A stretch of 64,000 nt of DNA from a virus, in the IMG/VR virus record IMGVR_UViG_3300025869_000011, positions 13,873 to 77,872 of that record; one strand, 5' to 3'. Shown piece after piece: positions 1,532-59,319 of the stretch. Position numbers and translations under genes: made by a program. Every line of letters begins with the position of its first letter. Within the stretch, counting starts at the first letter, position 1. Under the pieces are notes generated by a model. It searched no databases. It was given only the letters and a program-made list of their open reading frames with translations, and was not told the origin of the DNA.

Positions 1532-2083
1532 ATGGAACGTTGCTTAATATTAGATTTTGATGATACTTTAGTTTCAACTATAGATACTCATGCAAATTCA
1601 TGGAAACTTGCTATAGAAAGAGTATTGAATAGGGATATACCTATTGAAACAATAATGTCTGATATTAATTACGGAATGGATGTTCTTTTAAAGAAATATC
1701 AATTAACTGAAGCTGAGTCCCAATTAGCACAAGATTACAAAAGAGAAATATTTTCAAAGAATCTTCATAAGACTAAAATAAATCAATTACTTTTGTGGAT
1801 AATTAAAAATTCTCAATTTGAAAAAGTTATTATAGCATCAAATTCATCTAGAGAAAATGTAGATAGAATTATGGCTTATCATAATATAAGTAATGAATTA
1901 TTTGATATGATTGTAACGAGGGATGATGTTTTAAATAAAAAGCCACACTCAGATATGGCAGATTTAATTTTTAAAACATTTCCTAAATATAATCCAGCTG
2001 ATTTTTTAATGGTTGGTGATTCAGAAGTAGATTCAACATTCGCACTTAAAAACAAAATGAAATGCATACTGGTAAAGTTTTAG
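1532..2083 (+). CDS. HAD-superfamily phosphatase
   Basis: LDFDDTLV motif I, SNS, KKP, MVGDSEVD. Confidence 0.85.
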   Translation: MERCLILDFDDTLVSTIDTHANSWKLAIERVLNRDIPIETIMSDINYGMDVLLKKYQLTEAESQLAQDYKREIFSKNLHKTKINQLLLWIIKNSQFEKVIIASNSSRENVDRIMAYHNISNELFDMIVTRDDVLNKKPHSDMADLIFKTFPKYNPADFLMVGDSEVDSTFALKNKMKCILVKF

Positions 2084-2808
2084 TAGGAAATAGTGGAGAT
2101 AGGGTATATCTTCAAGATAACAAAGTTATTAAAGAAGCTGGGGTTTATCCTATAAAGTTTAAGCAGCAAATGGATTGGTTAAAAAATTGTACCCATCCGA
2201 ATTTTATAAAGATTAATCCTATATCAGATACTTCATTTGAAATGAAAAAATACCCAACATGGTATGATAAAATCTGTGAACAGCCTTTAATTAAATCAAT
2301 TGACCAATTAGATGATCTTATTCATATTGTAAATGATTTTGATGGTTACGGTACTGATGTAGATACAAGATCTTATTTAGATAAATTAGAAGGTAGAACA
2401 GGTTATACTTATGAAGGTGAATTAGATGCATCGTCAGGCTGGGGGTTTGTTCATGGTGATTTAACAGTAAGTAATATCTTATATGATAAGGATTTTATTT
2501 TTATTGATCCACGAGGTACTGAAGAGCAGAATTATTATGACTATGGAAAACTGATGCAATCTTTTGTAATGAAATATGAGGCCCATATATACAATGAAAG
2601 GAATTCTAAATATCTTAAGTTCTGTAGGGAAGCAGAAAACATAATGTATGAATGGTATGACGAATACCAATTAAAATTCTTTTTAGCAGTTCACTTATTA
2701 GGAGCTGTTCCATTTTTTGAATTAAATGAAAGATATGAATTGGCAGGTATGTTCCTTAAGAAAGGGCATGAATTATTCGATGAATTAGAAATTAAATATA
2801 GCAAATGA
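2062..2808 (+). CDS. APH/choline-kinase-like phosphotransferase (putative sugar kinase)
   Basis: HGDLTVSNIL, FIDPRG, YYDYGKL motifs. Confidence 0.75.
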   Translation: MHTGKVLVGNSGDRVYLQDNKVIKEAGVYPIKFKQQMDWLKNCTHPNFIKINPISDTSFEMKKYPTWYDKICEQPLIKSIDQLDDLIHIVNDFDGYGTDVDTRSYLDKLEGRTGYTYEGELDASSGWGFVHGDLTVSNILYDKDFIFIDPRGTEEQNYYDYGKLMQSFVMKYEAHIYNERNSKYLKFCREAENIMYEWYDEYQLKFFLAVHLLGAVPFFELNERYELAGMFLKKGHELFDELEIKYSK

Positions 2809-3512
2809 GTAGAGTAAGAAAAGCAATTATCTTAGCAGCCGGGAGGTCTACTAGGTATGGATCAAATAAACTTATAGATCCAATTTTAGGAAAATCAACA
2901 ATTCAGTACTGTATTGAATTTTGTATTGAGAATGGAATAGAGGATGCATATGTTACTATAAGTAAATCTGACTTCTTTTTTAAAAATAGAAATACAAAAT
3001 TATCTCATCCTATTATTGAAAGTTTATCAAAGTATAAAGAAAAGATAAACATTTGTTATGAATTTCAGAAGGATGATGAATATGGACCAGGCGCTGCAAT
3101 TAAGGCATGGGAAGGTAAATTTTATGAACCTTTCTTATGTCTCTTTGGTGACAATTATTATCAAGGTAATATTGGTTTAGAATACCATGATCCTAATAAC
3201 ACTGTTGTTACTTATAAGGATTATGAAACTAGAGCAAGAAATTTACAACTTGCTACTATCCTAGAAGATGTGGTTATTGAAAAACCGCATGGTGTAGTAA
3301 GCGGTAGATATTTTTGCGGATATATGATATTTGGTAAAGAGGCATTTGATAACTTAAGTAGTATTAAATTATCAAACAGAAATGAATATGAAATTACTCA
3401 TCTTATAAACTCGATGGATAATTTAAAATTTGAAGAATTAAATATATGTTGGTATGATTTAACATACGAACAAGATAAACAAGTAATAGAAGATATTATT
3501 CAAAATTGTTAA
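2805..3512 (+). CDS. Sugar-1-phosphate nucleotidyltransferase (RmlA-like)
   Basis: ILAAGRSTRYG..NKL, LFGDN, IEKP, RNEYEIT. Confidence 0.85.
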   Translation: MSRVRKAIILAAGRSTRYGSNKLIDPILGKSTIQYCIEFCIENGIEDAYVTISKSDFFFKNRNTKLSHPIIESLSKYKEKINICYEFQKDDEYGPGAAIKAWEGKFYEPFLCLFGDNYYQGNIGLEYHDPNNTVVTYKDYETRARNLQLATILEDVVIEKPHGVVSGRYFCGYMIFGKEAFDNLSSIKLSNRNEYEITHLINSMDNLKFEELNICWYDLTYEQDKQVIEDIIQNC

Positions 3513-3513
3513 T

Positions 3514-4779
3514 ATGAAAGAGAATGTAAAAAAGATTGGTTTTTTTAAATTAGGTAAAGCCATAAAGTTTAATGAAAACAGTTGGAGCGCAATCGGTGGT
3601 GATTGTGAACCTAAGCAATTAATTTGTTCAATTGCAAACAGAAATCCTAATATCGAATATTGGCTATTAAGCCCAAATGATTTAGGTAAGTTTAGAGCAA
3701 AACAAAAACCTAAAGTAAATTCTTTATTCGGCCCACCGCAAACAGATGAACCTATAGTTCCTAATAATATTAAAGAATTTCATTCTACTATGAAAGAGAG
3801 AAAGTCTACTGATGAAACTGTTGAAATTATTCAAGGTTTAGATTTAGATTTTATTTTCTTTTATACTGGTCCAACAAGTACTGTTAATATTCCAGAGTAT
3901 ATCAACAAGAAGGATGGTACTGGTCAAGTTAAATCGTTGGATTTCTTTAAGTATTATGCAGCTCCAATTATTAAAGCGATGAATGAATTGGAAAAGAAAG
4001 TTCCTATTGTAGGTTTACTTGTTGATAACCGATATGTTCTTGCGTGTAAGGATTGGAGTATAAATAATAGACCAACCTATTACTTAGCACAAAATACATT
4101 TACTAAAGAAGAACAATATTTCTGTAATCCACCACTGAGAGATGTTAAAACAATTACATCTACATATGAATATTCAGGTATTGAAACAGTATTTCTTTTA
4201 GATAAGAAAAGATATGATACTGATGAATTATTTAAAATGAAAAAGACCAATTCATTTATGATGCTACAGAATCAAGGTAAAGGTTCAGGTGGAATGGATC
4301 GTTGGGATCCAGTAAAAGAATACATTGTTGATCAAGAAATAGAAACTGATATCTATGGTAAATGGGATGATGAGATTAAAGAAAAGTATCCTAAATGGTT
4401 TAAAGGAGAAACTAGAATCGAAACAATGACCGATGAATTACTCGGTACTAAATATACATTCTGTGTACCTATTAAAGAAGGTATGGTAACCTCTAAGTAT
4501 GCTGAAATGCTACACTATGGTATTATACCTTTCTTACACCCATCTTACGATACTGACTTTAATGTATTCCCTGAAGGTCATTTTATTAGATGTAAATCAG
4601 CAGAAGATTTAAAAAAGAAAATTGAATTCTTAAATGCAAACCCGGAGCATTATAAGAAATTATTTTATAACCTACAAGAAAAGTATCTTAAGGATTCTTA
4701 TTATACTGGAGAGCATGTAGATAACAAGATCTGGGAATCTTATGAAAGAGTAACTAAAACTGAAACCGTAAATGTATAA
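3514..4779 (+). CDS. GT-B glycosyltransferase resembling T4 DNA beta-glucosyltransferase
   Basis: C-terminal half (DIYGKW...VTSKYAEML...PFLHPSYD...FIRCKSAEDLKKKIEFL) parallels the BGT nucleotide-sugar domain; sits in a sugar/DNA-methylase cluster. Confidence 0.55.
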   Translation: MKENVKKIGFFKLGKAIKFNENSWSAIGGDCEPKQLICSIANRNPNIEYWLLSPNDLGKFRAKQKPKVNSLFGPPQTDEPIVPNNIKEFHSTMKERKSTDETVEIIQGLDLDFIFFYTGPTSTVNIPEYINKKDGTGQVKSLDFFKYYAAPIIKAMNELEKKVPIVGLLVDNRYVLACKDWSINNRPTYYLAQNTFTKEEQYFCNPPLRDVKTITSTYEYSGIETVFLLDKKRYDTDELFKMKKTNSFMMLQNQGKGSGGMDRWDPVKEYIVDQEIETDIYGKWDDEIKEKYPKWFKGETRIETMTDELLGTKYTFCVPIKEGMVTSKYAEMLHYGIIPFLHPSYDTDFNVFPEGHFIRCKSAEDLKKKIEFLNANPEHYKKLFYNLQEKYLKDSYYTGEHVDNKIWESYERVTKTETVNV

Positions 4780-5794
4780 TTCTGAAACAAAAATCCTAGT
4801 CACCGGTGGTGCTGGGTTCGTTGGTACAAATTTTATCAATGATTTATTAAATAGAGGACATAATCCTAAATGTATTGCAGTGATCGATAATATGGAACAC
4901 GGTACTTATATACCTAAAGTCCATGATCAAATTGAAAATTTTCATAAAGTAGATATTAGAAATCAATATGTAGAAAACATTATTCAGGATTTTGCACCTG
5001 ATTATGTTTATCACTTCGCTGGCTTGGTTTCTATTTATGACTGTCATGAAGATCCATACGAAGCTGTAGATAATAATATCTTAGGAAGTATTAATGTAAT
5101 GAATGGTTGTGTAAAGGCAGATGTAAAAAGAATTATCTTTAGTGAAACTTCTGCTGTATATGAAAATTGTGAAATGCCTAAAGAAGGGTTTAACGAGAAT
5201 CAATCTGATCCTACTACAATTTATTCTACAACTAAAGCATGCCTTGCCTTATTAGCAGAATCATACCAGAGAACTAAAGGTTTAAATTATACTGCATTGA
5301 GATACTTTAATGTTGCTGGGCCACTTCAAGACTATAATAGAACCATACCTCCTGTATTCGCTGGATTTATTTTAAGAATTAAAGGTAATCATAATCCTAT
5401 AGTGTTTGGTGATTATATGAAGGCAAGAGATTATATTGATGTATCTGATGTTAATGCATTCCACATTCTTTGTATGGAAAATGAAGATACCGCAAACCAA
5501 ACCTTTAATTTAGGAACCGGTAAAATGACAAATCTAATGGATCTTAAAAATATGATTGGTGATATTATGGGAGTTGGTGAACCTGTGTTTGATCATTACG
5601 ATCCGATTGCAGGTGAGGCTTTAAATATCAGAGGGGATATCTCCAAAGCTAAATCGATGGGATGGGAACCTAAAAAAGATATAAGAGATACTATAAAAGA
5701 AACTATTGTTTATCTTGAAGAAGAAATTAATCAAGGTACAATTGACCCTTTAACTTTTATGGAAGATTTAGAAATTGAAAAAGTAAAAATATAA
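4772..5794 (+). CDS. NAD-dependent nucleotide-sugar epimerase/dehydratase (GalE-like SDR)
   Basis: TGGAGFVG, YSTTK (YxxxK), LRYFNVAG, RDYIDVSD. Confidence 0.9.
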   Translation: MYNSETKILVTGGAGFVGTNFINDLLNRGHNPKCIAVIDNMEHGTYIPKVHDQIENFHKVDIRNQYVENIIQDFAPDYVYHFAGLVSIYDCHEDPYEAVDNNILGSINVMNGCVKADVKRIIFSETSAVYENCEMPKEGFNENQSDPTTIYSTTKACLALLAESYQRTKGLNYTALRYFNVAGPLQDYNRTIPPVFAGFILRIKGNHNPIVFGDYMKARDYIDVSDVNAFHILCMENEDTANQTFNLGTGKMTNLMDLKNMIGDIMGVGEPVFDHYDPIAGEALNIRGDISKAKSMGWEPKKDIRDTIKETIVYLEEEINQGTIDPLTFMEDLEIEKVKI

Positions 5795-5795
5795 T

Positions 5796-7058
5796 ATGGA
5801 AAAAGAATTAAAATGGGGTACTATAATTCCACTGATTGGTGGTAGTGCTATAGGATGTAAAAAATCTGCAGGTAACGAACCTGCATTTCATTTAAGTTAT
5901 GATGCGTTTGCTGCTAATGAAAGTCATATTGAAAAATATTGGCCTGATGTACCTATGTATAGGTTAGATCATGAAGATTTAGAAATTCCTAAACAAACCT
6001 TTAACGAAGTAGATTATGTAAATTCAGTTTGTCCTTGTGCAGGGTTATCACAATTAAATTCTGCAAGAGGAACGTCTGCTTCTCGTGGATCTGGTGCTAC
6101 TCAAAATCAATGGATGTATAATTCATCAGAATATATTTTAGAAAACGTAAAACCTAAAGTACTTTGGGGTGAGAATGCACCTGGTCTTTTTACTAAGATG
6201 GGAGAAGGTGTTGTTGACAGGTTAAGAGAAATAGGCGAAAAATATGGCTATAGTTTTTCTTTAATTAAAACAAACACCGAGCTTCATGGAATTCCACAAA
6301 GAAGAATGAGAACTTTTTATTTCTTTTGGAATACACCAACTGTACCTATGTTAAGTTGGAAATTCAGAGAAAAGAAATTACTAATTGATTATCTTAATGA
6401 AATTCCTAAGGATGCTACACACCAAGATATGTTTATGGTTGAAGGTAAAGTCACAGATCATTTTACACCTTATGAATATGTTTTAGAAAAGGAAGGTTTA
6501 ACTCATGCTGAATTTGCTGCAAAATTTAAAAAAGGAACTATTGCACAGTACTTAGAAAAAAATGAACTTATTGATGACTGTATTAAATGGTTAGAAAAAC
6601 ATTATCCTAAAAGAGGGTTTTCAAATAAAAAATCTACAAAGACTTTTATTGATATGTTAGAGCACCAACAATATAAAACAAGTCAAGGATTAGGTTATTG
6701 GGATGCATCCCCGCATTTCTTTCACGATTCTTTTTCTGCTCTTATTGGTAGAAATATGTTTAATGGTGTACACCCAGTAGAAAACAGATATCTTAATGTT
6801 AGAGAAATGCTTCACTTAATGGGACTTCCTTTAGACTTCGGTATTGAAAGCTCAAGACAAGTAAATCATATTGCTCAAAATGTACCTGTTACAACTGCTA
6901 TGGATATGGCTGATGAGGTAAAGAAATTTTGTAAAGGCGAGGCTAAGATGACTAATTTTACATTTCTGAAACAAGATAACACAAGTCATAAAATTATTGA
7001 TTCTGTTGAAATTGGATCAGAACCTAAAAAGAAATATAAAGTAAAAAGTATAATTTAA
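5796..7058 (+). CDS. DNA cytosine-C5 methyltransferase-fold protein with atypical SAM-binding motif
   Basis: PC motif (VCPCAGLS), ENA (motif VI), PQRRMR (VIII), RYLNVREMLHLMGLP (IX); motif I reads IPLIGG instead of FxGxGG. Confidence 0.75.
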   Translation: MEKELKWGTIIPLIGGSAIGCKKSAGNEPAFHLSYDAFAANESHIEKYWPDVPMYRLDHEDLEIPKQTFNEVDYVNSVCPCAGLSQLNSARGTSASRGSGATQNQWMYNSSEYILENVKPKVLWGENAPGLFTKMGEGVVDRLREIGEKYGYSFSLIKTNTELHGIPQRRMRTFYFFWNTPTVPMLSWKFREKKLLIDYLNEIPKDATHQDMFMVEGKVTDHFTPYEYVLEKEGLTHAEFAAKFKKGTIAQYLEKNELIDDCIKWLEKHYPKRGFSNKKSTKTFIDMLEHQQYKTSQGLGYWDASPHFFHDSFSALIGRNMFNGVHPVENRYLNVREMLHLMGLPLDFGIESSRQVNHIAQNVPVTTAMDMADEVKKFCKGEAKMTNFTFLKQDNTSHKIIDSVEIGSEPKKKYKVKSII

Positions 7059-7060
7059 TT

Positions 7061-8065
7061 ATGAAAGATAACGCATTAGCAATAGGAATATCTAGTTTAG
7101 AGTTTACCAATATCTTATGTAGTTATTATCCTAAAGGGATCAAAGAAAATTTTGATATTTACTTATTTGTTGATAATAATAAAATAGACATAGATAAACT
7201 TCAGTGCATTTTTAAAGAGCATGATTTAGATATTTTTATTAATGCTAAAATTATTATCTTAAAGGATGTATATGATCATTATATAGAAAAGCATCAATAT
7301 AAAGGTAATGCAAAAAAGTTTCTATTAAATCATGGTTGTTTATTTAAAATTCTAATGCCTATTTATCTAAGAGAAATGTTTGGTGTTAAAAGAACATATG
7401 TTTCCGATGATGATGTATTTATCCTAAATGATCTCAGTTATATGTGGACTAAATATAAAGAGTTCGGTATTAAGAAGGAAAACTTATTTTACATTAGAAA
7501 TAAAAATAAGTATGATGTAATGAATGCCTTCAATGAAATATTTGAATCTGATTTTACTTTGGATCAAATGAATGGTCTAGCAATAAATGCAGGTAATATT
7601 ATTTATGACGAAGACCCTAAGTTAGAATATTACTTTGAGCGGTTTATGAAGCACCCATTTATTCATCATATGTTTTTTGATTTTACAGGTTATACGAGCT
7701 GGACAGTAGAACAGAGGTTTCATCATTTTAATATTCATAGATATTTAGCAGAAGGAAAGGAAGTTAAATTTTTAGAAAGTAAAGACTTAAGACTAATGCA
7801 AAATCTTGATAAAGATATGAAGGCTGGTGAGCCACCTGAAAAATATTTAAAAGAAGTCGTACCATCCTTAATCCATTATGCAATAGGCACAAAAAAACCT
7901 TTATGGTTAAATGATTTTTTACCAGGTCTTAAATGGAGATATGGTTTTGACTATAAGGCCAAATATGAATTAAAGGATATTCTATATAATAAAGATTGGC
8001 GACCACCATCCTTTAAAAGTGTACAGAAAAAACAAACAGCATTAAAAATTAAGTCTGTATTTTAA
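7061..8065 (+). CDS. GT8-like (GT-A) glycosyltransferase
   Basis: YVSDDDVFIL (DxD), INAG, EQ, LIHYAIGTKKP motifs in GT8 order. Confidence 0.6.
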   Translation: MKDNALAIGISSLEFTNILCSYYPKGIKENFDIYLFVDNNKIDIDKLQCIFKEHDLDIFINAKIIILKDVYDHYIEKHQYKGNAKKFLLNHGCLFKILMPIYLREMFGVKRTYVSDDDVFILNDLSYMWTKYKEFGIKKENLFYIRNKNKYDVMNAFNEIFESDFTLDQMNGLAINAGNIIYDEDPKLEYYFERFMKHPFIHHMFFDFTGYTSWTVEQRFHHFNIHRYLAEGKEVKFLESKDLRLMQNLDKDMKAGEPPEKYLKEVVPSLIHYAIGTKKPLWLNDFLPGLKWRYGFDYKAKYELKDILYNKDWRPPSFKSVQKKQTALKIKSVF

Positions 8066-8068
8066 CTT

Positions 8069-8101
8069 AAACTAAGTAACAATAATCAATATAATAATAA
8101 A
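8069..8101 (+). promoter_or_regulatory. Putative middle promoter AAAC-N17-TATAATAATAAA
   Basis: Conserved bipartite motif before the sliding clamp gene. Confidence 0.65.
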
Positions 8102-8116
8102 CAAATAATATTTTAA

Positions 8117-8866
8117 ATGGAAACAAAAATTAACAAAATTGACGGTTATGAATTAAGTTCATTCGTTCGCAAACTACTTCCAATTGACAAATTCATCTTT
8201 ATGAAAATCGCAAAAGAAGGTACTGTATCTTCTGTATATTTTCCTGAGAGAGATGCCGTAAAATTGGTTAACACTCCAACTGCTGATATCTTTGATGCTG
8301 ATATCTCTGAACCTGTAAAGGTAAGCTTTTATAATGGTACTAAAGTTATTGATGCATTAAGTCATTTTAATGGTGATGTCCAAGGTCGTATTAAGTATAC
8401 TGAATATGATGGAGAATTAATGGCAAGTGATTTTATTTTAGAAAATGAAGATCTTCAAATTAATTTGGCATGTACAGATCCTTCATTATCTTTTATGGAA
8501 ATGAGCAAGGAAGAAACTGATAGAGCATTCGGTACAGATTCTAAAATGTTTAGTTTTGATTTACTTACTACTCATGTAGATAAAATGAAATCATTATTTA
8601 ACTTAGATAAAGATGAAGATATCTTTACTCTTTATATAGGAGAAAAAGGTATTAATATTAAAGGTACTTCTTATGATGCTACTTTATGCCACTCTTATGA
8701 TTCAGATGTAGAAAAAGGTGCAAAAGTTGTAATTTATAAAAAGTATATTAATCTTTTAGATAAGGAAAATTACAAAGTAAGCGTTTGTGAAAATAAGGTT
8801 GTATTTAAATCTTTAGATACTAATACACATCTTACTGTTGCTGTTGCTATTACTGACGAGGATTAA
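8117..8866 (+). CDS. gp45: Sliding clamp (gp45/PCNA-like)
   Basis: Size of 249 aa, acidic two-domain pattern, C-terminal YKVSV...VVF...TVAVA like gp45; adjacent to the polymerase. Confidence 0.6.
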   Translation: METKINKIDGYELSSFVRKLLPIDKFIFMKIAKEGTVSSVYFPERDAVKLVNTPTADIFDADISEPVKVSFYNGTKVIDALSHFNGDVQGRIKYTEYDGELMASDFILENEDLQINLACTDPSLSFMEMSKEETDRAFGTDSKMFSFDLLTTHVDKMKSLFNLDKDEDIFTLYIGEKGINIKGTSYDATLCHSYDSDVEKGAKVVIYKKYINLLDKENYKVSVCENKVVFKSLDTNTHLTVAVAITDED

Positions 8867-8881
8867 TACTGCATCTAATTA

Positions 8882-8913
8882 TTTAAAGGGCATCATAATC
8901 GGTGCCCTTTAAA
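8882..8913 (+). terminator. Stem-loop/terminator overlapping the next promoter
   Basis: TTTAAAGGGCATC-ATAATC-GGTGCCCTTTAAA inverted repeat. Confidence 0.6.
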
Positions 8914-8943
8914 CTTTCTTTAATCTTACCGTATAAAAATAAA
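8911..8943 (+). promoter_or_regulatory. Putative middle promoter AAAC-N17-TATAAAAATAAA
   Basis: Conserved motif directly before the polymerase-half gene. Confidence 0.65.
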
Positions 8944-8944
8944 A

Positions 8945-10063
8945 ATGACAGAGGAATTACAAAAAATTAACGAAGAGGCATCTAAGTTTTATAATTATGA
9001 ACAGGCAGTTAAGTTAATGCTTAACTCTATTTACGGCGCATTTGGTAATCCTTATTTTTATTTCTTTAATGTTGATATTGCTGAAACTATTACACTCCAA
9101 GGTAAAGATGCAATTTTATATACCGAACAATTAGTTAATAAGTATTTTAAAGAGTTTTGGCATAAAGATCTACCAGCTCACGCTGCTATGGGTATTACTG
9201 TAACAGGTAAAATTGAAAAACCAGTAGGTATTTATATTGATACAGATTCAGTGTATGTTAAATTTGATGAAGTAATTCAAAAGTCGGAAGGCTGGAACGG
9301 TGATGAAAAAGAATTTATACTTAAGCTTTATAAGGTTAGGTTAAATGGTTATATAGAAAAGATTCTACAAAAATATGCAGACGATAATAATGCAGAAAAC
9401 TTTTTATCTTTTGAATTAGAAAGTATTGCTAAAAATGCAATATGGTTGGCAAAGAAAAAGTATATGCAGAATATAGTTTGGAAGGATCCGGATATTCACT
9501 ATGATGATCTTTCTAAAATTAGTTCAAAAGGATTTGAAATCATTCAGTCATCTACTCCTATTTTTGCAAGAGAAAAATTAAAAGAACTATTAACTTACAT
9601 ATTTTCTGTAAGTGAATTAGATATGGGAGCATTTGCATCTTTGCTTAAGGATGTTAAAAGACAATTTAGATTAGCAAATGTTGATCAAATCAGTTTTTCA
9701 AGAAAGGTTAATAATTATCAAAAGTATATTGTAAATGATTATGAACAATTTGAGATCGCATCAAAATGCCCAATCGGCGTAAGATCTGCAGGTTATCATA
9801 ATTACTTATTAAACAATTCAGGCAAAAAAGGTAAATACCAACCATTAGGAAACGGGGAAAAATGTAAAATGTATTTTTCTGAAGATAATTCCTGTGATGT
9901 ATTTGCATATGCACCTGGAGATTATCCTTATGAATTCGCGCCTAAGATTGATTACGATCGACAATTCGAAAAAACAATATTAGATCCTATAAACAGAGTT
10001 GTTACTGCTATGGGATTTAAGGGATTCAATAGAAACTTGATTTATACTACAAGTTTATTTTAA
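8945..10063 (+). CDS. gp43: Family B DNA polymerase, C-terminal subunit only (split gp43)
   Basis: KLMLNSIYGAFGN (motif B), YIDTDSVY (motif C), KKKY; no exonuclease domain or DxxSLYPS motif A. Confidence 0.9.
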   Translation: MTEELQKINEEASKFYNYEQAVKLMLNSIYGAFGNPYFYFFNVDIAETITLQGKDAILYTEQLVNKYFKEFWHKDLPAHAAMGITVTGKIEKPVGIYIDTDSVYVKFDEVIQKSEGWNGDEKEFILKLYKVRLNGYIEKILQKYADDNNAENFLSFELESIAKNAIWLAKKKYMQNIVWKDPDIHYDDLSKISSKGFEIIQSSTPIFAREKLKELLTYIFSVSELDMGAFASLLKDVKRQFRLANVDQISFSRKVNNYQKYIVNDYEQFEIASKCPIGVRSAGYHNYLLNNSGKKGKYQPLGNGEKCKMYFSEDNSCDVFAYAPGDYPYEFAPKIDYDRQFEKTILDPINRVVTAMGFKGFNRNLIYTTSLF

Positions 10064-10076
10064 AAAAAATTATGTT

Positions 10077-11696
10077 ATGAAAAACCCAGATAAATTAAAC
10101 AGAAAAGATATAAGCAATTTATGTAAATTAGCGCTAGATAAAGGTGGTGATTTAGTTCCATTAAAAATTCCTTCGTCAGAATCATTAGGTGAAGGATTGA
10201 CTAATGGTTCGATTCTTTTTCATAAAGATAAATGGCTTCTTAATTTAAGGAGAGTTGGATATCTATTTTATCAATCTGAAAATAAACAAAAATTCCCATG
10301 CCCTTGGGGTCCTTTAGTTTATTTAAATCCAGAAAATGATGTAGTATTAAGAACTACAAATTATATCTGTGATTTAAATAGTGATACTCTTGAGGTTGAT
10401 AAATGGAGAAAAACAGATACTACATTATTAGATAGACCACCATTATGGGAATTTATTGGATTAGAGGATGCCCGTTTACAATTTTGGGATAACAAATTAT
10501 ATCAAACGGGCGTGCGACGTGACACTACAGTCAATGGGCAAGGTAGAATGGAATTATCTACAATTAAGAATGACGAGTCTTGTATGGAGATTGATAGAGT
10601 AAGAATAGAGCCTCCTAATGATCCTACTTCTTATTGTGAAAAAAATTGGATGGCTATAAATGATATGCCATACCATTATATTAAATGGTCAAGCCCAACA
10701 GAATTAGTAAAGGTAGATCCTAATAAAGGTACTTCAGAATTAGTAAAAATTGTAGACCAATCTCATATTAAAACAAAAAGAGATATGAGAGGTTCTTCTA
10801 ATATAATTAAATATAAAGATTACTGGGTAGGAATAATTCATGAAGTAGATCTTTGGTTTAATTCGGAATCTCAAAAAGACTCAATTTATTATCACAGATT
10901 TGTTGTTTGGGATAAAGATTGGAAAATTAAATATATTAGTGATGAATTTGATTTTATGACTGGGCGAGTTGAATTCACTTGTGGTATTGCATTTGACGAA
11001 AAGACTAATAACTTTTTAATACCATTTGGATTTCAAGATCATACTTCATTTATGTTAAGTTTACCTGAATCTGTATTTAGGGAAGTTACTAATATGGAGC
11101 CTATAAAAACCAAAGAAAGCGTAAAGAAAACCACTAAACATAAAACACTTCATAATTTCATTCATAATCCATTTAATGCTAAGGCTGCGTTTAAACTTGG
11201 GGAGGGGTATTTTAAAGAAGGTCATTGGGGATCTGCTTTAGGTTTCTTTTTAAGAGCAGCGGAATATACTGATGATTTAGATCTTCAATACGAGTCATTT
11301 TTCATGGTGTGTAGATGTCTTGCAAATAAAGGTGGTCGTGATGAATGTGAACAAAAAATGTGGTTGCAATTAATTTCATTAGATCCTACTCGACCTGAAG
11401 GTTATGGTGCAATGTCTTCATATTATTCATGGAGAGGTAATTATCATAATGCTTATTTTTATAGTAACCTAGGTTATACTTTAGGTAAAGAATGCAAGCC
11501 TATGATAAAATCTACTGGTGCTATAATTAGTAAATCACCTCTATTAAAGCAAACTAAATTATTTGGATCATCTTATGGTTTAATGAAAGATAAATTAGAA
11601 ATACTTAAAGATTTTATATCTAACCCTAAAAATCATAATCCGGCATTACATGCATTTATGTCACAAGAAGCAGTAAAGTATAAACTTGTACAATAA
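10077..11696 (+). CDS. Beta-propeller glycosidase-like domain plus TPR-like C-terminus
   Basis: GLEDARL, EKNWM, RGSS, YYHRFV, VEFTCG motifs of GH43/GH130-like propellers; helical repeats after about aa 360. Confidence 0.55.
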   Translation: MKNPDKLNRKDISNLCKLALDKGGDLVPLKIPSSESLGEGLTNGSILFHKDKWLLNLRRVGYLFYQSENKQKFPCPWGPLVYLNPENDVVLRTTNYICDLNSDTLEVDKWRKTDTTLLDRPPLWEFIGLEDARLQFWDNKLYQTGVRRDTTVNGQGRMELSTIKNDESCMEIDRVRIEPPNDPTSYCEKNWMAINDMPYHYIKWSSPTELVKVDPNKGTSELVKIVDQSHIKTKRDMRGSSNIIKYKDYWVGIIHEVDLWFNSESQKDSIYYHRFVVWDKDWKIKYISDEFDFMTGRVEFTCGIAFDEKTNNFLIPFGFQDHTSFMLSLPESVFREVTNMEPIKTKESVKKTTKHKTLHNFIHNPFNAKAAFKLGEGYFKEGHWGSALGFFLRAAEYTDDLDLQYESFFMVCRCLANKGGRDECEQKMWLQLISLDPTRPEGYGAMSSYYSWRGNYHNAYFYSNLGYTLGKECKPMIKSTGAIISKSPLLKQTKLFGSSYGLMKDKLEILKDFISNPKNHNPALHAFMSQEAVKYKLVQ

Positions 11697-11728
11697 AACA
11701 ACTCTTATATTTTCTATATAATAATAAA
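11696..11728 (+). promoter_or_regulatory. Putative middle promoter
   Basis: AAAC-N17-TATAATAATAAA. Confidence 0.65.
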
Positions 11729-11739
11729 ATAAAACAAAT

Positions 11740-12936
11740 ATGGCAAAAGAATTTTCATTCGCAGATTTAAACAAAGAAATGTCAAAACACTCCACATACG
11801 GAGAGACTTTAGACAAATCAACTATTTCAGAAATAGATCATTATATACCAACTGGAAATTGGCATCTTAATGCTTGCTTAACAGGCTCGCTGTTTGGTGG
11901 TTATCCTAATAACAGGGCAGTTGCATTAGCAGGACCCTCCGGTACTGGTAAAACTTATCTTATCTTAAATGCAATTAAACAAGCACAGGCACAAGGTTAT
12001 AGTATTGTATTTTATGATTCTGAAAATGCTGTAGATAAAACTTTAGTAGAAAAGTTTGGTATTGATCCAACAAAATTTCGTTATGAGCCATGTAATACGG
12101 TTCAAGAATTTAGAACTTCGGTAACGGCAATTACCGATGTATTAATCGAACAAAAAGCAAAAGGTATCGCTCTACCTAAAATTATGGTCGTGCTGGATTC
12201 TGCAGGTAACTTAGCAACCCAAAAAGAAATTGATGATGCTAAAACTGGAAGTAGTAAAGCTGATATGACAAGAGCTAAATTATTAAAATCTACATTCCGA
12301 ATCATTATGACGCAATTCGGTATATGTAAAATACCTTTCTTATTTACTAATCATACTTACCAAACACAAGATCTTTTCTCTAGGCAAGTAGGTGGCGGTG
12401 GAACTGGTCCTGAATATGCTGCCTCTATTATTTTATTTTTAGGTAAAGCAAAACTTAAAGAAGGTATAGAACAAACCGGTATTATTGTTACTGCCAAACC
12501 AAATAAAAATAGATTTGCAAAACCTACTAATATTAAATTCCATATTTCTTTTAATAAAGGTATGAATCCTTATATTGGATTAGAGGAGTATATAAGTTGG
12601 GATACATGTGGAGTTGAACGAGGAAGATTTATAAATGAGAATGCATTTAAGAAATTAACTGATATAGGTAAAGCTGAATGTAGAGAACATTCTTTTGATA
12701 AGGATGGTAAAAAGGTTACTATTTATTTTCAACCAGCCGCAACTGCAAGAAAGATATGCGTAAAGCATCTTAATGATACTGTAGATCTTAATCAATTATT
12801 TACACCAGAAGTAATGACCGAGGGTGTACTGAAGGCATTGGAGCCAATCGTTGCTGCTAAGTTTAAGTATGGTGAAGAACTTGATGTTGAAAATTTAACC
12901 GAAATGCTAGAAGCCGATGTTACCGAAAAATCTTAA
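11740..12936 (+). CDS. uvsX: RecA-like recombinase UvsX
   Basis: AGPSGTGKT Walker A, FYDSE, VLDSAGNL, DMTRAK, TNHTY, GGG. Confidence 0.92.
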   Translation: MAKEFSFADLNKEMSKHSTYGETLDKSTISEIDHYIPTGNWHLNACLTGSLFGGYPNNRAVALAGPSGTGKTYLILNAIKQAQAQGYSIVFYDSENAVDKTLVEKFGIDPTKFRYEPCNTVQEFRTSVTAITDVLIEQKAKGIALPKIMVVLDSAGNLATQKEIDDAKTGSSKADMTRAKLLKSTFRIIMTQFGICKIPFLFTNHTYQTQDLFSRQVGGGGTGPEYAASIILFLGKAKLKEGIEQTGIIVTAKPNKNRFAKPTNIKFHISFNKGMNPYIGLEEYISWDTCGVERGRFINENAFKKLTDIGKAECREHSFDKDGKKVTIYFQPAATARKICVKHLNDTVDLNQLFTPEVMTEGVLKALEPIVAAKFKYGEELDVENLTEMLEADVTEKS

Positions 12937-54841: not shown

Positions 54842-54955
54842 ATGATGGAATTTTTAGAGTTCACATTTAGTTCTATTTGGCATTTTCTTGGTATCCTAAT
54901 TTTAATAGGAGTAGTCGGTAGCATAATTCCTAATATTAACATTAATAAAAAATGA
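54842..54955 (+). CDS. Small single-TM membrane peptide (37 aa, absent from the ORF track)
   Basis: MMEFLEFTFSSIWHFLGILILIGVVGSII...; ATGA overlap with the next gene. Confidence 0.5.
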   Translation: MMEFLEFTFSSIWHFLGILILIGVVGSIIPNININKK

Positions 54956-55431
54956 ATAAAATAATTTTAGTAGGTAAAGGTGCTGCTGGTAAAGATCATA
55001 TGAGAAAAATTCTTAGTGGTAGAGGTTTTCAGTATGGTATTTCATACACGACTCGACCTCCTAGGGATGGTGAAATTGATGGTAAGGATTATTTCTTTTT
55101 AACAGAAGAAGATTTTAAAAGAAAAATCAATCAAGGGTATTGGTATGAATGGATAGAATTTAATGGATGGTATTATGGTACAAGCCAAAGACAGTTTACT
55201 ATAAGCTGTAACCTTTTTATTATGACACCTAAAGGTATAAGTCATATTGACCCTGTAGATAGAAAAGAATGTACAATAATCTATCTTAATGTAGATGAAA
55301 AGATTAGGCGTAATCGATTAATTAAAAGAGAAATGCCTGGTGATTCAATAGACAGGAGAATGATTGCAGATGCAAAAGACTTTAAAGATTTTACAGATTT
55401 TGATATTGAAATAAACAATTCTACTTTTTAA
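54952..55431 (+). CDS. Guanylate kinase-like NMP kinase
   Basis: GKGAAGKD, SYTTRPPRDGEIDGKDYFF, WYYGT. Confidence 0.88.
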   Translation: MNKIILVGKGAAGKDHMRKILSGRGFQYGISYTTRPPRDGEIDGKDYFFLTEEDFKRKINQGYWYEWIEFNGWYYGTSQRQFTISCNLFIMTPKGISHIDPVDRKECTIIYLNVDEKIRRNRLIKREMPGDSIDRRMIADAKDFKDFTDFDIEINNSTF

Positions 55432-55446
55432 CTATATAAAAATAAA
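55413..55446 (+). promoter_or_regulatory. Putative middle promoter
   Basis: AAAC-N18-TATAAAAATAAA. Confidence 0.6.
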
Positions 55447-55449
55447 CAC

Positions 55450-56049
55450 ATGAGCAAATTTATTATCATTGAAGGTACAGATAATACAGGTAAAGATACC
55501 CAGCAAAATCTAATTATTGAAAAATTACATAACCTAGTCTTTCATAAGCTTCACTATTCTTCATTACCTTTTAAAGATGATGTAGAAAAACATGTTAATT
55601 ATTCTACTAAAATGTATAATGATATGTTTAAAATGATGGTAAATAATAAAGATGCTGATATTAATATGATTTTTAATAGATCTCATTTAGGTGAATCTGT
55701 TTACTCTCCTCTTTATAGAAATTATTCAGGTGATTATATTTTTAATATTGAAAAAGAGTATGTTAATCAACTAAGAAAAGAATTATATTTAATTACCTTA
55801 ACTAATGATCCTCATACAATTTTAAAACGAGATGATGGCAAATCATTCTATGGTAATGAAGAAGAAGTTAAAGCCGAAGTTGATGGATTTAACAGAGCTC
55901 ATAGATTAAGTAAGATTAAAAATAAACTAAATATTAATATAGGTACAATGAGCGCAGATGAAGTATCTCATATCATAATTGATTTTCTAAAACATGAAAA
56001 TTCTATTAGTGGTGTTGCTGAACAACTAAATATGTTTACTGATGTGTAA
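55450..56049 (+). CDS. Thymidylate-kinase-like dNMP kinase
   Basis: IIIEGTDNTGKDT P-loop, FNRSHLGE.VY. Confidence 0.75.
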   Translation: MSKFIIIEGTDNTGKDTQQNLIIEKLHNLVFHKLHYSSLPFKDDVEKHVNYSTKMYNDMFKMMVNNKDADINMIFNRSHLGESVYSPLYRNYSGDYIFNIEKEYVNQLRKELYLITLTNDPHTILKRDDGKSFYGNEEEVKAEVDGFNRAHRLSKIKNKLNINIGTMSADEVSHIIIDFLKHENSISGVAEQLNMFTDV

Positions 56050-56227
56050 AGCAGAAGATTTATTATACGAGGCTCACCATGAAGGTATTAGAGATGAGGT
56101 TCTTGCTGAGAGCCGTCGATTATATCAGGATAAAAAGAAGTATGAACACATGGAGTTTGGTGATAGAATAGAAATAGCACTAAGAAATGTTAGAGAGAAT
56201 AAATTACAAAGTAAATTAAAAAAATGA
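56042..56227 (+). CDS. Hypothetical protein
   Basis: Overlapping ORF in operon. Confidence 0.5.
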   Translation: MCKAEDLLYEAHHEGIRDEVLAESRRLYQDKKKYEHMEFGDRIEIALRNVRENKLQSKLKK

Positions 56228-57135
56228 GAGTATTTAAAGGAGAGACTTTTGCAGAAGCATACAACTATGCTCTAAGTAGTATTATACATAATCCTACATA
56301 CATATCATCCCCTAGAGGTATGAAGATATTTGAAATGACTGATGCAGCGATCGTTGTAGAAGATCCTACATATTGTCTTTATGAAAATGATCGTAGGAGT
56401 AGTCAATTTAAATATATTGCAGCAGAATTGGTTTGGTATTTTACTGGCCGTAATGATGCTGACTTTATTACACCGTATGCAAAGTTCTGGGATCAAATTA
56501 AAAATAAAGACGGTACTGTTAACTCTGCTTATGGTAATCTTATCTTTACCGAAGAATTAGAAGATGGTCGTAATCAATATCGATGGGCATTAGATTCCTT
56601 AATTCAAGATAAAGATTCAAGGCAAGCAATTATACATTTTAATAAGCCCTCTCATCAATGGAATGGAAATAGAGATTTTGTTTGTACTCTTAATGGCATA
56701 TTTCAAATAAGAGATAATAAATTAAACTTTACTATTGATATGAGATCTAACGATCTTATATTAGGTACTCCTACTGATGTTGCATTCTTTTGTCTTTTAC
56801 AAATTCAAATGTTAGAGCATCTTCGTAATCATTACCCTGAATTAGAATTAGGTACATATACTCATATTGCACATTCGCTTCATTTATATGAAAGGCACTT
56901 CGATCTTGCAAGCGAGATGTTAATGAAATCGTTTAATCCTCAATCATTTCCAAATATGACAGAGTTTTTAATTGATCCTAACGGTAAATCATTAGATGGT
57001 TTAAAACAATTAGAAGATGAAATGATTCAGAGTAATGATGTTGTATTTAAAGGAAAATCTAATTTTGAACCACAACCTCATGATGATCTTTTACATCAGT
57101 GGATATCCGACGCAATTTTTAATAAAGCCCTTTAA
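56224..57135 (+). CDS. Thymidylate synthase-family enzyme of the dCMP hydroxymethylase (gp42) type
   Basis: VNSAYG, DSRQA, DFVCT, MRSNDLILGTPTDV (Asp at the nucleotide-specificity position), SLHLYERHF. Confidence 0.75.
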   Translation: MRVFKGETFAEAYNYALSSIIHNPTYISSPRGMKIFEMTDAAIVVEDPTYCLYENDRRSSQFKYIAAELVWYFTGRNDADFITPYAKFWDQIKNKDGTVNSAYGNLIFTEELEDGRNQYRWALDSLIQDKDSRQAIIHFNKPSHQWNGNRDFVCTLNGIFQIRDNKLNFTIDMRSNDLILGTPTDVAFFCLLQIQMLEHLRNHYPELELGTYTHIAHSLHLYERHFDLASEMLMKSFNPQSFPNMTEFLIDPNGKSLDGLKQLEDEMIQSNDVVFKGKSNFEPQPHDDLLHQWISDAIFNKAL

Positions 57136-57138
57136 AAG

Positions 57139-58011
57139 ATGGTAATAGATACCTTTTTATATTATAATGAAATAGAATTACTTGAATTAAGACTCAAGGT
57201 TCTCTATGACTACGTTGATCGCTTTGTAATAGTAGAAGGTGATCATACACACAAGGGGGATCCTATCCCCTTTAGGGCTAAAAATGATCTTAAGAAACTA
57301 GGATATGAAAATGATAGAAAGATACATGTCATCGAAGTAAACCTTAAATCTTTTGATGAAGAACCGGATCCTTGGAAAAGATCGGATCGTGCTAGGAATG
57401 CACAAGCTAGCATATATTCTGACGATGATGATATAGTTATTATTGCAGATATAGATGAATTATGGCATCCTCATTATTTACAACAGCATGTAAGATATTT
57501 AAACGAAAACCCAACTCATGTTTTAATTAATAGATGTTGGGATTTACAAGGCCAAGTTGATTTAGGACTATATGCCAAACATAATAATGAATGTAATTCT
57601 AATGCACCTTTATTTGCCAAAGGTTCTTTTTGGAAAAAACATTCACCAGCTTCTGCTAGGTGGATATGCGGTTGGGGTGGTAATAAAAAAGATTTTCCTT
57701 TTGAAGTTAATTGGTTTACTGATGTTAAGAAGGGGTGGCATCTTTCTTATATGGGAAATGTTGAAAGAAAGTTATCTAAAATTAATACATCATGTCATTG
57801 GGATGATGAATGGGTTCCAGGTATTTCTTTCGAATCAGATTATACAAAGAACCGCTTTAAGAATTTTAATGGTAAACCTTTAACAGATGGTAGAGATTTA
57901 TTAGGTAGAGAAAATTTTTATATTAAGCCATTTGATTACACTGATCTTTTTGATACGATTGGTGACGGCTCAGATCATTTAAAAGATTGGTTATTAGGTA
58001 GAAATATATAA
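57139..58011 (+). CDS. GT17-like glycosyltransferase
   Basis: NEIELLELRL, VDRFVIVE...THKG, IADIDE, GWHLSY. Confidence 0.75.
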   Translation: MVIDTFLYYNEIELLELRLKVLYDYVDRFVIVEGDHTHKGDPIPFRAKNDLKKLGYENDRKIHVIEVNLKSFDEEPDPWKRSDRARNAQASIYSDDDDIVIIADIDELWHPHYLQQHVRYLNENPTHVLINRCWDLQGQVDLGLYAKHNNECNSNAPLFAKGSFWKKHSPASARWICGWGGNKKDFPFEVNWFTDVKKGWHLSYMGNVERKLSKINTSCHWDDEWVPGISFESDYTKNRFKNFNGKPLTDGRDLLGRENFYIKPFDYTDLFDTIGDGSDHLKDWLLGRNI

Positions 58012-58028
58012 ACAAAATAAAACTTGTT

Positions 58029-59237
58029 TTGAAGTATCTAAAATTATTTGAACAATTCCTAAATGAAAAGAAACCTAAAGGAGCACCAGACTTCCATCAT
58101 TCTGATGCACCTGATGCTGAAGGTAGATTTAAAGATCTTTCTATAAAAGATTTAGCCGCATGGTTAATTAAAACTAGAAAGAAAGATGTTAAAAAAATTA
58201 GTGGTTCTTTAACTCAGCAAATAGTTTTTAACAGAAAGAGTGACCCTAAGTATGCTGAAAAGATGGAGAAAACTAGAAAAGAAGTATATAAACAATTAGG
58301 TAGAGAAGATTTATTAAAAGAATCTGCTGATACTGAAAATGGTCTAGGCAAAGTTTATTTAGCATTAAGAGAAGATAGTGGACAAAGATGGTGGACTTAT
58401 AAAGGTTTTGCTGGAAATAAATTTTTTGTACAAGTTCATGAAAACAATATGAATGACATTGATATTAATCCAGACTATCCAGTTTTAACCTATCATTCAG
58501 ATACAGTTAATAAACTAATAAAGGCTGGTAAGATTAAAAAAGAAAATGTTTATAATCACCCAGACCACATATCAAAATCTGGATCTAAGGAAGAATTCCA
58601 TAAACTGGTTGGAGAAGATGAAAATATACCTAAGACAGTATATTCTAAGAATGATGCATTAGAGCAATTAGAATTTCCTATTATTGCAAAACCTGCAGAA
58701 GGTCATAGTGGAGAAGGTATTCAAATAATAGAAAAGCCAGATTTAATGGAAGAGGTGGACGAAAAGATTTTTGATACCTTTTCAGAATACATTGACAAGG
58801 CAGAAGAACATAGGTTTATAAACTTTAAAGGAAAGCCGATTTTTTGGATGGAGAGAACTCCTATAAATGAAAAGGCTAAGTCCGGTAAAGGTAGTGCTAA
58901 AGAAGCTATGGAGTTTGGATATGCTAAAAGAAATATTAAAGATTTACCTAAAGATTATAAAAAAGTATTAGAGAAGTTTTGTAAGATTTATGAAGATTTG
59001 CCTTATATGTGTTTTGATGTTATGAAAGGTAAAAATGGAAAGGTCTATATTATTGAATCCAATGCTCAGCCTGGAGTACCTTTTGATTCTACTATTGAAG
59101 CTTATAAACATATCTATGAAGATTTTTATAAGAAATCTCTTGACGAAGAAAGTTTAACTAAATTAAATGAATATGCTAAAACTATGATTGAAAAGACTCT
59201 TAAAAAAGATGGGGGCAAAAGATTTTCAATTAAATAG
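58029..59237 (+). CDS. ATP-grasp (RimK-like) ligase with capsid-targeting-like leader
   Basis: IPKT, FPIIAKP..GHSGEGI, EYID...EHR, FDVM, IIESNAQPG; TTG start after late motif at 58003; N-terminus MKYLKLFEQFLNE. Confidence 0.7.
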   Translation: MKYLKLFEQFLNEKKPKGAPDFHHSDAPDAEGRFKDLSIKDLAAWLIKTRKKDVKKISGSLTQQIVFNRKSDPKYAEKMEKTRKEVYKQLGREDLLKESADTENGLGKVYLALREDSGQRWWTYKGFAGNKFFVQVHENNMNDIDINPDYPVLTYHSDTVNKLIKAGKIKKENVYNHPDHISKSGSKEEFHKLVGEDENIPKTVYSKNDALEQLEFPIIAKPAEGHSGEGIQIIEKPDLMEEVDEKIFDTFSEYIDKAEEHRFINFKGKPIFWMERTPINEKAKSGKGSAKEAMEFGYAKRNIKDLPKDYKKVLEKFCKIYEDLPYMCFDVMKGKNGKVYIIESNAQPGVPFDSTIEAYKHIYEDFYKKSLDEESLTKLNEYAKTMIEKTLKKDGGKRFSIK

Positions 59238-59254
59238 AAAAAAGTTATTCAATA

Positions 59255-59295
59255 ATTTTCAGTTCCCAATTATTTGTATTATATTTATACTATAA
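59255..59295 (+). promoter_or_regulatory. Putative early promoter
   Basis: ATTTTCAGTTCCCAATTA-N6-TTATATTTATACTATAA. Confidence 0.6.
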
Positions 59296-59319
59296 CAGTT
59301 AATCTGTAAATAAAAACAT

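Follow-up and report, generated by a model that had tools for sequence, protein, structure and literature searches.

DNA cytosine C5-methyltransferases are textbook enzymes of S-adenosylmethionine (SAM), and their SAM-free reactions on 5-hydroxymethylcytosine (hmC), among them formaldehyde removal and thiol coupling, have been laboratory curiosities and tools of epigenome chemistry. In vitro, the 5-CH2-OH group of hmC is released or exchanged by these enzymes without SAM, chemistry reportedly described by Liutkeviciute and colleagues in 2009 and 2011. Here, we focus on a viral protein of the same fold. The window, as we call the whole stretch of DNA that was analysed, spans 64,000 nucleotides (positions 13,873 to 77,872 of IMG/VR record IMGVR_UViG_3300025869_000011) and at positions 5796..7058 contains an open reading frame (ORF) for a methyltransferase-like (MT-like) enzyme of 420 residues; this and the other window features whose positions are given with two dots lie on the + strand. 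A preliminary description of the window had pictured an enzyme with intact cytosine-activating residues and a remodelled SAM pocket. We find that it belongs to a large phage subfamily of the C5-cytosine methyltransferase fold which was probably recruited into the hypermodification of hmC DNA. The genetic tie of this family to hmC modules is strongly supported and is the new result; in the literature, which included papers on phage methyltransferase/TET/glycosyltransferase clusters, CmoX, 5-hydroxycytosine and the hypermodification of thymidine, we found no description of the subfamily or of its link to genes of the gp42 type.

The best known relatives are M.HhaI, M.HaeIII and Dcm (PF00145). 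Like them, the MT-like protein has the two-domain fold (Z 24-26), the Pro-Cys of motif IV, the Glu of motif VI, the QxRxR of motif VIII, motif IX, and a large target-recognition domain between motifs VIII and IX. Unlike theirs, its gene has no restriction or Vsr gene as a partner, occurs almost exclusively in phages and shows a link to dCMP hydroxymethylase. A further relative, CmoX (PDB 8YF3), is a phage DNA cytosine C5-carboxymethyltransferase in which Arg350, at the position of HhaI Asn304, selects carboxy-SAM (Cx-SAM), and this motif X Asn position switches the donor in both CmoX and engineered M.MpeI (PMC12783734). CmoX, which makes a handle for further hypermodification, shares with the MT-like protein a phage C5-methyltransferase fold that is changed at this position. 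However, CmoX keeps the adenosyl-binding residues Phe25, Glu47, Phe48 and Asp69, combines SPPC with Arg350 and is accompanied by CmoA and an amide ligase, whereas the MT-like protein has VCPC and Gln361, is without those adenosyl contacts and is found in the company of gp42-type thymidylate synthase (TS) homologues and glycosyltransferases. A CmoX-like reading with Cx-SAM as donor was rejected on this signature, with no SPPC and Gln rather than Arg. CmoA, the Cx-SAM synthase (TIGR00740), had no match in the source contig, a 77.9-kb IMG/VR viral fragment with a GC content near 30% that represents about 28% of the genome.

Three further known systems resemble the locus in part. In phage clusters that join a methyltransferase, a 5mYOX (TET) enzyme and a glycosyltransferase, at times with an epimerase, a SAM-dependent methyltransferase makes 5-methylcytosine (5mC), which TET oxidises after replication (PMC8256090; bioRxiv 10.1101/2023.12.21.572611). 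These clusters, which yield glycosylated 5-substituted cytosine, place a gene of the C5-methyltransferase family amid DNA glycosyltransferases and a sugar epimerase, as does the window. The window differs in its altered SAM motifs and in that its hmC would be made before replication by a gp42-type enzyme. TET/JBP (PF12851) had no match in the contig, a fragment, and none in a search of two near-complete genomes that encode a family member, in which the control genomes gave no match either. In aGPT-Pplase2, an active-site thiolate adds to C6 of 5-phosphomethyldeoxyuridine (5-PmdU) and a nucleophile replaces the leaving group (PMC8989533). The aGPT-Pplase2 and PUGT amino-acid:DNA transferases (M6 gp51, PaMx11 gp46; PMC8989533, PMC11472151) would share this C6-thiolate chemistry with the MT-like protein, but they have an unrelated helix-hairpin-helix, glycosylase-like fold, act on 5-PmdU and need a P-loop kinase for 5-hydroxymethyldeoxyuridine (5-hmdU) in DNA, and no such kinase is evident in the window. 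T4 (gp42, gp1, gp56, alpha- and beta-glucosyltransferase) resembles the window in having a dCMP hydroxymethylase, a dNMP kinase and DNA glycosyltransferases by UvsX, gp41, the clamp and the polymerase. However, T4 is without a gene of the C5-methyltransferase fold, whereas in marine phages the modules also include the MT-like enzyme and NDP-sugar synthesis genes of their own.

The Fold and Its Altered Cofactor Pocket

An AlphaFold2 model of the protein, computed from 68 homologues (predicted local distance difference test score, pLDDT, 94.7), contains the complete two-domain fold. In VIA comparisons it matched M.HaeIII (1dct) with a Z of 25.6 and a root-mean-square deviation of 2.9 over 273 residues, M.HhaI with a Z of 24.7 (model residues 3-382 on HhaI chain 10-325), CmoX with a Z of 24.2, and both S. 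pombe Dnmt2 and EhMeth with a Z of 20-21. The sequence profiles were less uniform. Pfam PF00145 scored 69.1 bits (cut-off 22) in an alignment which begins at profile position 47, so that motifs I and II were unmatched, while the NCBIfam dcm profile TIGR00675, at 46.7 bits, fell under its cut-off of 100.65. Hidden Markov model (HMM) alignments to M.HaeIII and M.HhaI span motifs IV-VIII and IX-X and not the N-terminus, and the Pfam and PDB alignments mostly leave out the first 40-60 residues.

From the aligned regions, it was evident that the catalytic motifs PC, ENA and QxRxR are intact, as the preliminary description had stated. Motif IV and the catalytic loop, CPCAGLS (residues 79-85; 6030..6050), align to the PC of HaeIII, HhaI and Dcm, which makes Cys81 the predicted nucleophile. 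Motif VI, GENAP (residues 125-129; 6168..6182), aligns to the canonical ENV, with Glu126 corresponding to the Glu that contacts N3/N4 of cytosine. Motif VIII, HGIPQRRMRTF (residues 164-174; 6285..6317), aligns to the PQxRxR of the same three enzymes and supplies Arg170 and Arg172.

The elements which build the SAM site in M.HhaI, M.HaeIII and Dcm are changed, and here too the earlier observations on motifs I, II and X held up on alignment. The place of motif I, FxGxGG in those enzymes, is taken by IIPLIGGS (residues 10-17; 5823..5846). An hhalign profile-profile alignment to E. coli Dcm pairs I11 with the motif I Phe, P12 with Ala, L13 with the first Gly and G15-G16 with GG, so that Ile11 replaces the SAM-stacking Phe and Leu13 the first Gly of the loop. 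For motif II, secondary structure assignment of the model with DSSP gave strand beta-2 at residues 31-34 and helix alpha-B at 36-48 (region 31-44, with FHLSYDAF at 31-38; 5886..5927). Ser34-Tyr35 lies at the place of HhaI E40/W41, the motif II Glu-Trp, in a mapping aligned by eye. Across the family the strand ends in Ser/Thr34, position 35 is aromatic and position 36 (the Asp of 'SYD') varies, so no conserved acid ends strand beta-2; the only conserved acid nearby, Asp/Glu42, belongs to helix alpha-B. Motif X, IAQNVPV (residues 359-365; 6870..6890), aligns without gaps to IGNAVPV of HaeIII and has AQNV instead of GN(A/S)V, with Gln361 at the position of HhaI Asn304. Beyond the canonical fold, where the HhaI match ends at model residue 382, there is a family-specific C-terminal extension (residues 383-420; 6942..7058) which consists of a beta-hairpin (strands 388-394 and 399-405) with near-invariant Gln393 and Asn395, followed by a basic tail ending in KVKSII.

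The changed residues are characteristic of a family and not of one protein. More than 2000 relatives were found in a database clustered at 90% identity, and 324 clusters at 50% identity had E < 1e-30. Conservation was read from an alignment of 128 rows (the query plus 127 proteins, 34-60% identical, that represent 50% clusters) and from a second alignment, A1, of 68 sequences. In both, P12, L13, G15, G16, S/T34, N41, D/E42 and Q361-N-V-P are invariant or nearly so, and the same is true of the catalytic C81, E126-N-A-P, R170 and R172. Within motif VI, E126 and A128 are invariant and N127 and P129 nearly so; within motif X, this holds for Q361 and V363, and for N362 and P364, respectively. Also conserved are the aromatic residue at 35 (Tyr/Trp/Phe), Asn104 and the hairpin residues Gln393 and Asn395; compared with M.HhaI, M.HaeIII and Dcm, the family adds invariant polar Asn41, Asp/Glu42 and Asn104 along with a conserved C-terminal hairpin. 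The pocket changes are kept in at least 124 clusters of relatives, with identity down to 34%. Invariance is as strict at the altered positions as at the catalytic ones, and the pocket appears to have been rebuilt and to be under selection rather than decayed by chance. Judged from the alignments, the former SAM site is replaced by a different, more polar and equally invariant set composed of Pro12-Leu13, Ser34, Asn41-Asp/Glu42, Asn104 and Gln361-Asn362.

Association With Hydroxymethylcytosine Genes

About 50 kb downstream of the MT-like gene, the window encodes a homologue of the gp42-type dCMP hydroxymethylase (56224..57135; PF00303, 82.8 bits). The product scores far under the ThyA equivalog cut-offs of NCBIfam, its best named phage matches are dCMP hydroxymethylases, and it has D143/C146/T147/D169/D177 (E. 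coli ThyA numbering), the same as RB3 gp42. It adjoins a thymidylate-kinase-like dNMP kinase (55450..56049; phrog_761 at 2e-16). By its signature residues, this gene is likely the source of hmC in the genome, which supports the earlier supposition that the genome incorporates a C5-substituted cytosine.

Whether this pairing is particular to one phage can be judged from the neighbourhoods of other family members. We retrieved 80 viral loci with relatives, 27 of them close (79-95% identity) and with the same operon as the window. The divergent set comprises 55 IMG/VR and phage loci with less than 60% identity, among them those of cyanophage S-TIM5 and Pseudoalteromonas phage XG4, and forms 36 clusters at 80% identity. 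Within 8-10 kb, a TS homologue was the commonest neighbour in this set (31 of the 55 loci and 23 of the 36 dereplicated clusters). Diagnostic ThyA positions for the specificity of TS homologues were taken from PMC13326640. The N177 position is the determinant of dCMP specificity, and Asp there together with D143, T147 and D169 is the signature of the RB3/T4 gp42 dCMP hydroxymethylase. All TS homologues at the divergent loci have Asp at this position and Asp169, and the full signature (D143/T147/D169/D177) is present in 30 of the 31 TS-bearing loci, the exception being S-TIM5 (C143/H147). A reading of these proteins as 5-hydroxy-dCMP synthases, which would give 5-hydroxycytosine, was ruled out by Asp, not Asn, at position 169. 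Two near-complete jumbo genomes without TS near the MT-like gene each have a gp42-type TS elsewhere.

Glycosylation genes recur in the same neighbourhoods. A TS homologue, an alpha-glucosyltransferase or GT-B glycosyltransferase, or a protein with an HMUDK_hel domain lies nearby in 30 of the 36 clusters. Other recurrent neighbours are DNA alpha-glucosyltransferase (PF11440, phrog_2888), GT-B transferases, short-chain dehydrogenases/reductases (SDRs), dCMP deaminase, dUTPase/dCTP-deaminase-like proteins, nucleotidyltransferase/kinase fusions, ThyX, UvsX and gp41. In a quick tree, the hmC-linked family spans T4-like, Pol III-bearing and jumbo phages, and the link extends over the whole tree. The alignment and neighbourhood survey that the preliminary description had called for showed the altered pocket conserved and hmC genes recurrent nearby. 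A set of 42 Dcm-type viral loci (566 kb) contained no TS or glycosyltransferase homologue, although this control is narrow and made up mostly of enterobacterial prophages with 64-100% identity.

Among the genomes of 185,579 prokaryotic species, a search with a smaller alignment (A3) gave only 15 loci. Twelve of them are contigs of metagenome-assembled genomes with the same phage module, including TS in 11 and in addition deaminase, glycosyltransferase or HMUDK-like, UvsX or gp41 genes. The remaining three are a lone, 30%-identical copy in a Victivallis isolate, a context-free 1.2-kb fragment and a marginal match. Among prokaryotic sequences, the family is essentially viral.

Helical Neighbours and a Fusion Protein

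At approximately 11 loci, the MT-like gene is directly preceded by a gene for a helical protein (phrog_17781) with a weak match to HMUDK_hel (PF18723), the helical domain of 5-hmdU DNA kinases. One protein of 889 residues (P0322) is a fusion of HMUDK_hel (6e-11, over the cut-off), a winged helix and an MT-like domain in which the signature is complete. When the helical neighbour was modelled, it likewise gave a winged-helix match (Z ~10). In VIA, its helical body matched the DUF2419 queuine salvage enzyme with a Z of 9.0 and the 5-PmdU glycinyltransferase PaMx11 gp46 with a Z of 8.5, values in the chance range for helical proteins which serve as a lead only, and a Foldseek search with the model returned no significant fold match. 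As far as the model goes, this weak likeness to DUF2419 and gp46 agrees with the Pfam link to enzymes of hydroxymethyl-pyrimidine hypermodification. The helical family (L033:8553-9998, L052:8176-10002 and P0322) has invariant TEL-TS, GxYYGYH, GxG and ExxxCQ motifs and no P-loop.

Eukaryote-Like Homologues

Long forms of 600-1460 residues with the same IPLIGG/ENAP/QNVP signature are encoded by eukaryote-like transcripts (L151:180-2240; P0040, P0071, P0121, P0312). The MT-like domains of these forms share 52-60% identity with the phage protein, and one form has a CXXC zinc finger. The sources include the transcriptome of the copepod Neocalanus flemingeri and a 3-kb contig of 43% GC with one ORF of 946 codons. 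When metagenomes were scanned with the long form P0312, just one transcript-like contig of 3 kb was returned. In the quick tree, the eukaryote-like forms group beside the clade of the window and inside the phage diversity. The occurrence of these forms looks like transfer between phage-type and eukaryotic genomes. A separate eukaryote-like protein of 838 residues (P0240) has a C2H2 zinc finger, matches Tet_JBP weakly and contains a divergent domain of the MT-like type, with PNAGGG as motif I and QGVP as motif X.

Proposed Reaction and Alternative Explanations

A genome built with 5-hydroxymethyl-dCTP (hm-dCTP) has no C5-H for a plain C5-methyltransferase, yet the family accompanies the synthesis of hm-dCMP, and the simplest reading is therefore that it acts on a base derived from hmC. 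The fold, the apparatus that flips and binds a cytosine and the residues for covalent catalysis are all intact, and the Cys/Glu/Arg set that is kept is the one required for addition to C6 of a flipped cytosine. The position of Gln361 is the one at which Arg350 selects Cx-SAM in CmoX, which shows that it tunes the group that is transferred. From these sequence comparisons, we tentatively favour, at a little under an even chance, a post-replicative enzyme that works on hmC-derived bases through covalent Cys-C6 catalysis and is not an ordinary methylase. The genome would first be replicated with hm-dCTP, and the enzyme would then flip out hmC, or a glycosylated or otherwise esterified form of it. 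Cys81 would attack C6 as Glu126 protonates N3, and the resulting enamine would eject the C5-CH2-O-X group to leave an intermediate with an exocyclic methylene. The rebuilt former SAM pocket would present a nucleophile or co-substrate that traps this intermediate, before beta-elimination releases the enzyme. The C5 substituent or a polar co-substrate would be bound in this pocket, whose lining consists of Ser, Asn, Asp/Glu, Asn, Gln and Asn. The chemistry would be that of aGPT-Pplase2 on 5-PmdU, and also that of common C5-methyltransferases when they meet hmC in vitro without SAM.

A bolder form of this proposal is that the family as a whole is SAM-independent, derivatises hmC or its glycosyl or phospho ester in DNA and represents an undescribed cytosine hypermodification that is widespread in marine phages and was passed to some eukaryotes. 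This is a possibility that we would sooner expect to fail than to hold. If true, it would be the first biological use of SAM-free C5-methyltransferase chemistry on hmC, would point to cytosine hypermodification in abundant marine phages as a counterpart of the kinase/aGPT-Pplase route of thymidine hypermodification, and would offer new enzymes for labelling or sequencing 5hmC; it would also raise the question of the role of the eukaryote-borne copies. Repurposing had already been suggested in the preliminary description, with either hmC as substrate or another cosubstrate such as an NDP-sugar. The tie to hmC gained support from the single fusion and from the synteny, seen throughout the family, with genes of the gp42 type, DNA glycosyltransferases and HMUDK_hel proteins, while the NDP-sugar as cosubstrate found no support of its own.

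Several observations weigh against an hmC-directed enzyme, and some of them also favour its main competitor, a SAM-dependent DNA cytosine-5 methyltransferase with an unusual but working SAM site. Such an enzyme would methylate cytosines that escape hmC replacement, or those of host DNA, and complement hmC glycosylation; we regard it as unlikely, although a serious candidate. The pocket change was read from sequence, and an adenosyl cofactor is possible. An aromatic residue persists at position 35, the site of the adenine-stacking Trp41 of HhaI, motif I keeps its GG, Asp/Asn/Glu58 is retained close to the motif III Asp, and Ser34 with Asn41-Asp/Glu42 could serve as a ribose holder. RNA m5C methyltransferases are generally known to accept Ala-Pro for Gly-x in motif I, PF00145 is over its threshold, and the closest folds (Z ~25) are those of SAM-dependent enzymes. 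Complete replacement of C by hmC is an assumption; a dCTPase was looked for in the 78-kb fragment and not found, so that partial substitution is possible. T4 glucosylates hmC without such an enzyme, which leaves the need for an extra step unexplained. The eukaryote-like copies share the pocket and presumably act without wholesale hmC, which means that hmC genomes are not the only place for this pocket; the activity must also fit eukaryote-like hosts, and this calls for caution on the hmC reading. The CXXC or weak Tet_JBP domains of some of these homologues would suit a 5mC writer. However, a working methylase would have to cope with four replacements throughout the family: the Phe and the first Gly of motif I, the latter by a bulky, invariant Leu, the Glu of motif II and the Asn of motif X. 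The HMM alignments mostly omit the first 40-60 residues, and the dcm score is below cut-off. Its family is nearly absent from cellular genomes and restriction-modification contexts, and is tied to a gp42-type hydroxymethylase which takes away the substrate of a plain C5-methyltransferase. Should the protein bind SAM after all, it would represent a new way to build a SAM site in this fold, in phages that still need 5mC in spite of hmC.

The same combination of intact cytosine-activating residues and a changed donor pocket could also belong to an enzyme that acts on unmodified C with a non-methyl group from a non-SAM or SAM-derived donor, for example a one-carbon unit giving hmC or another electrophile, and so patches residual C for the glycosyltransferases. 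The donor switches of CmoX and engineered M.MpeI at the motif X Asn position (PMC12783734) set a precedent, and the eukaryote-like homologues would gain a substrate. It is also general knowledge that C5-methyltransferases add aldehydes to C in vitro. We consider this improbable: the contig search turned up no gene for donor synthesis such as CmoA, the SPPC and Arg signature of CmoX is absent from the protein, no folate- or other cofactor-binding motif was recognised, and little C would be left to patch if dCTP is eliminated as in T4. Least probable of all, with only a slight chance, is that the protein modifies no DNA base in the phage and is an accessory factor that binds hmC DNA or flips its bases, or a Dnmt2-like RNA enzyme, merely co-regulated with modification genes. 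Dnmt2 shows that the fold can serve tRNA, the structural matches include S. pombe Dnmt2 and EhMeth, and the operon adjoins clamp and polymerase genes. However, the Cys, the Glu and both Arg residues are invariant over hundreds of sequences, as covalent catalysis on cytosine would require, and the fusion to HMUDK_hel and a winged helix points to DNA, as does the synteny with DNA glycosyltransferases.

Gene Organization of the Window

The MT-like gene is part of a tight string of genes encoding, in order, a HAD hydrolase, a kinase-like protein, a sugar-1-phosphate nucleotidyltransferase, a GT-B-like protein, an SDR epimerase, the MT-like protein and a GT8-like protein, and continuing with a probable clamp, a PolB half, UvsX and a gp41-type helicase. 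It starts 2 nt past the stop of the upstream SDR gene, and 3 nt separate its own stop from the next gene. The sugar-activation genes (1532..3512) comprise the HAD hydrolase (1532-2083), the kinase-like protein (2062-2808) and the nucleotidyltransferase (2805-3512), and were assigned from matches to phrog_8468, weak matches to Bud32 and phrog_21938, and NCBIfam nucleotidyltransferase matches. The GT-B-like glycosyltransferase (3514..4779) has a weak PF13524 match and no match in a PDB sequence search; by tblastn synteny, its homologues adjoin MT-like genes in many other phages. Directly upstream of the MT-like gene is an NAD-dependent NDP-sugar epimerase/dehydratase of the SDR type (4772..5794; PF01370 at 2e-46; phrog_540). 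Directly downstream is a probable GT-A (GT8-like) glycosyltransferase of 334 residues (7061..8065), for which Pfam, PHROG, NCBIfam and PDB sequence searches gave no match and ESM Atlas features gave a score of 0.96 to the PF01501 cluster, a lead only. This ORF contains a DDD motif and an HYAIGTKKPLW motif, and is missing in about one third of the close relatives of the operon. Further downstream (8945-11696), the C-terminal half of PolB forms an ORF of its own (8945-10063) and is followed by an ORF of 539 residues, a split-polymerase arrangement. A near-identity DNA search of phage records with positions 4000-12000 of the window returned no match.

The hydroxymethylase gene lies in a second modification module (54952-59853), which consists of a guanylate-kinase-like gene, the dNMP kinase, the TS homologue, a glycosyltransferase-like ORF (57139-58011), an ATP-grasp ligase (58029-59237) and a phosphoesterase. 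A homologue of the ATP-grasp protein with 60% identity is found 2 kb from the MT-like gene in another phage locus (L049), a link that hints at an amide- or ester-forming decoration.

Additional Genes in Other Phage Modules

In S-TIM5, the gene annotated as 'ThyA' (L003:5763-6599) is 2.4 kb from the MT-like gene, and its product has Asp at the ThyA Asn177 position along with Cys143 and His147. From these residues, it is probably a dCMP-specific enzyme, either a methylase or a hydroxymethylase, and not a thymidylate synthase. Other hmC modules with an MT-like gene include genes for a myo-inositol-1-phosphate-synthase-like protein (L061:2951-4234), a cytidylyltransferase-like protein (L073:3647-4120), an FkbM-type methyltransferase (L051:1682-3169) and a nucleotidyltransferase-APH kinase fusion (L004:1329-3008), which suggests decorations beyond simple hexoses.

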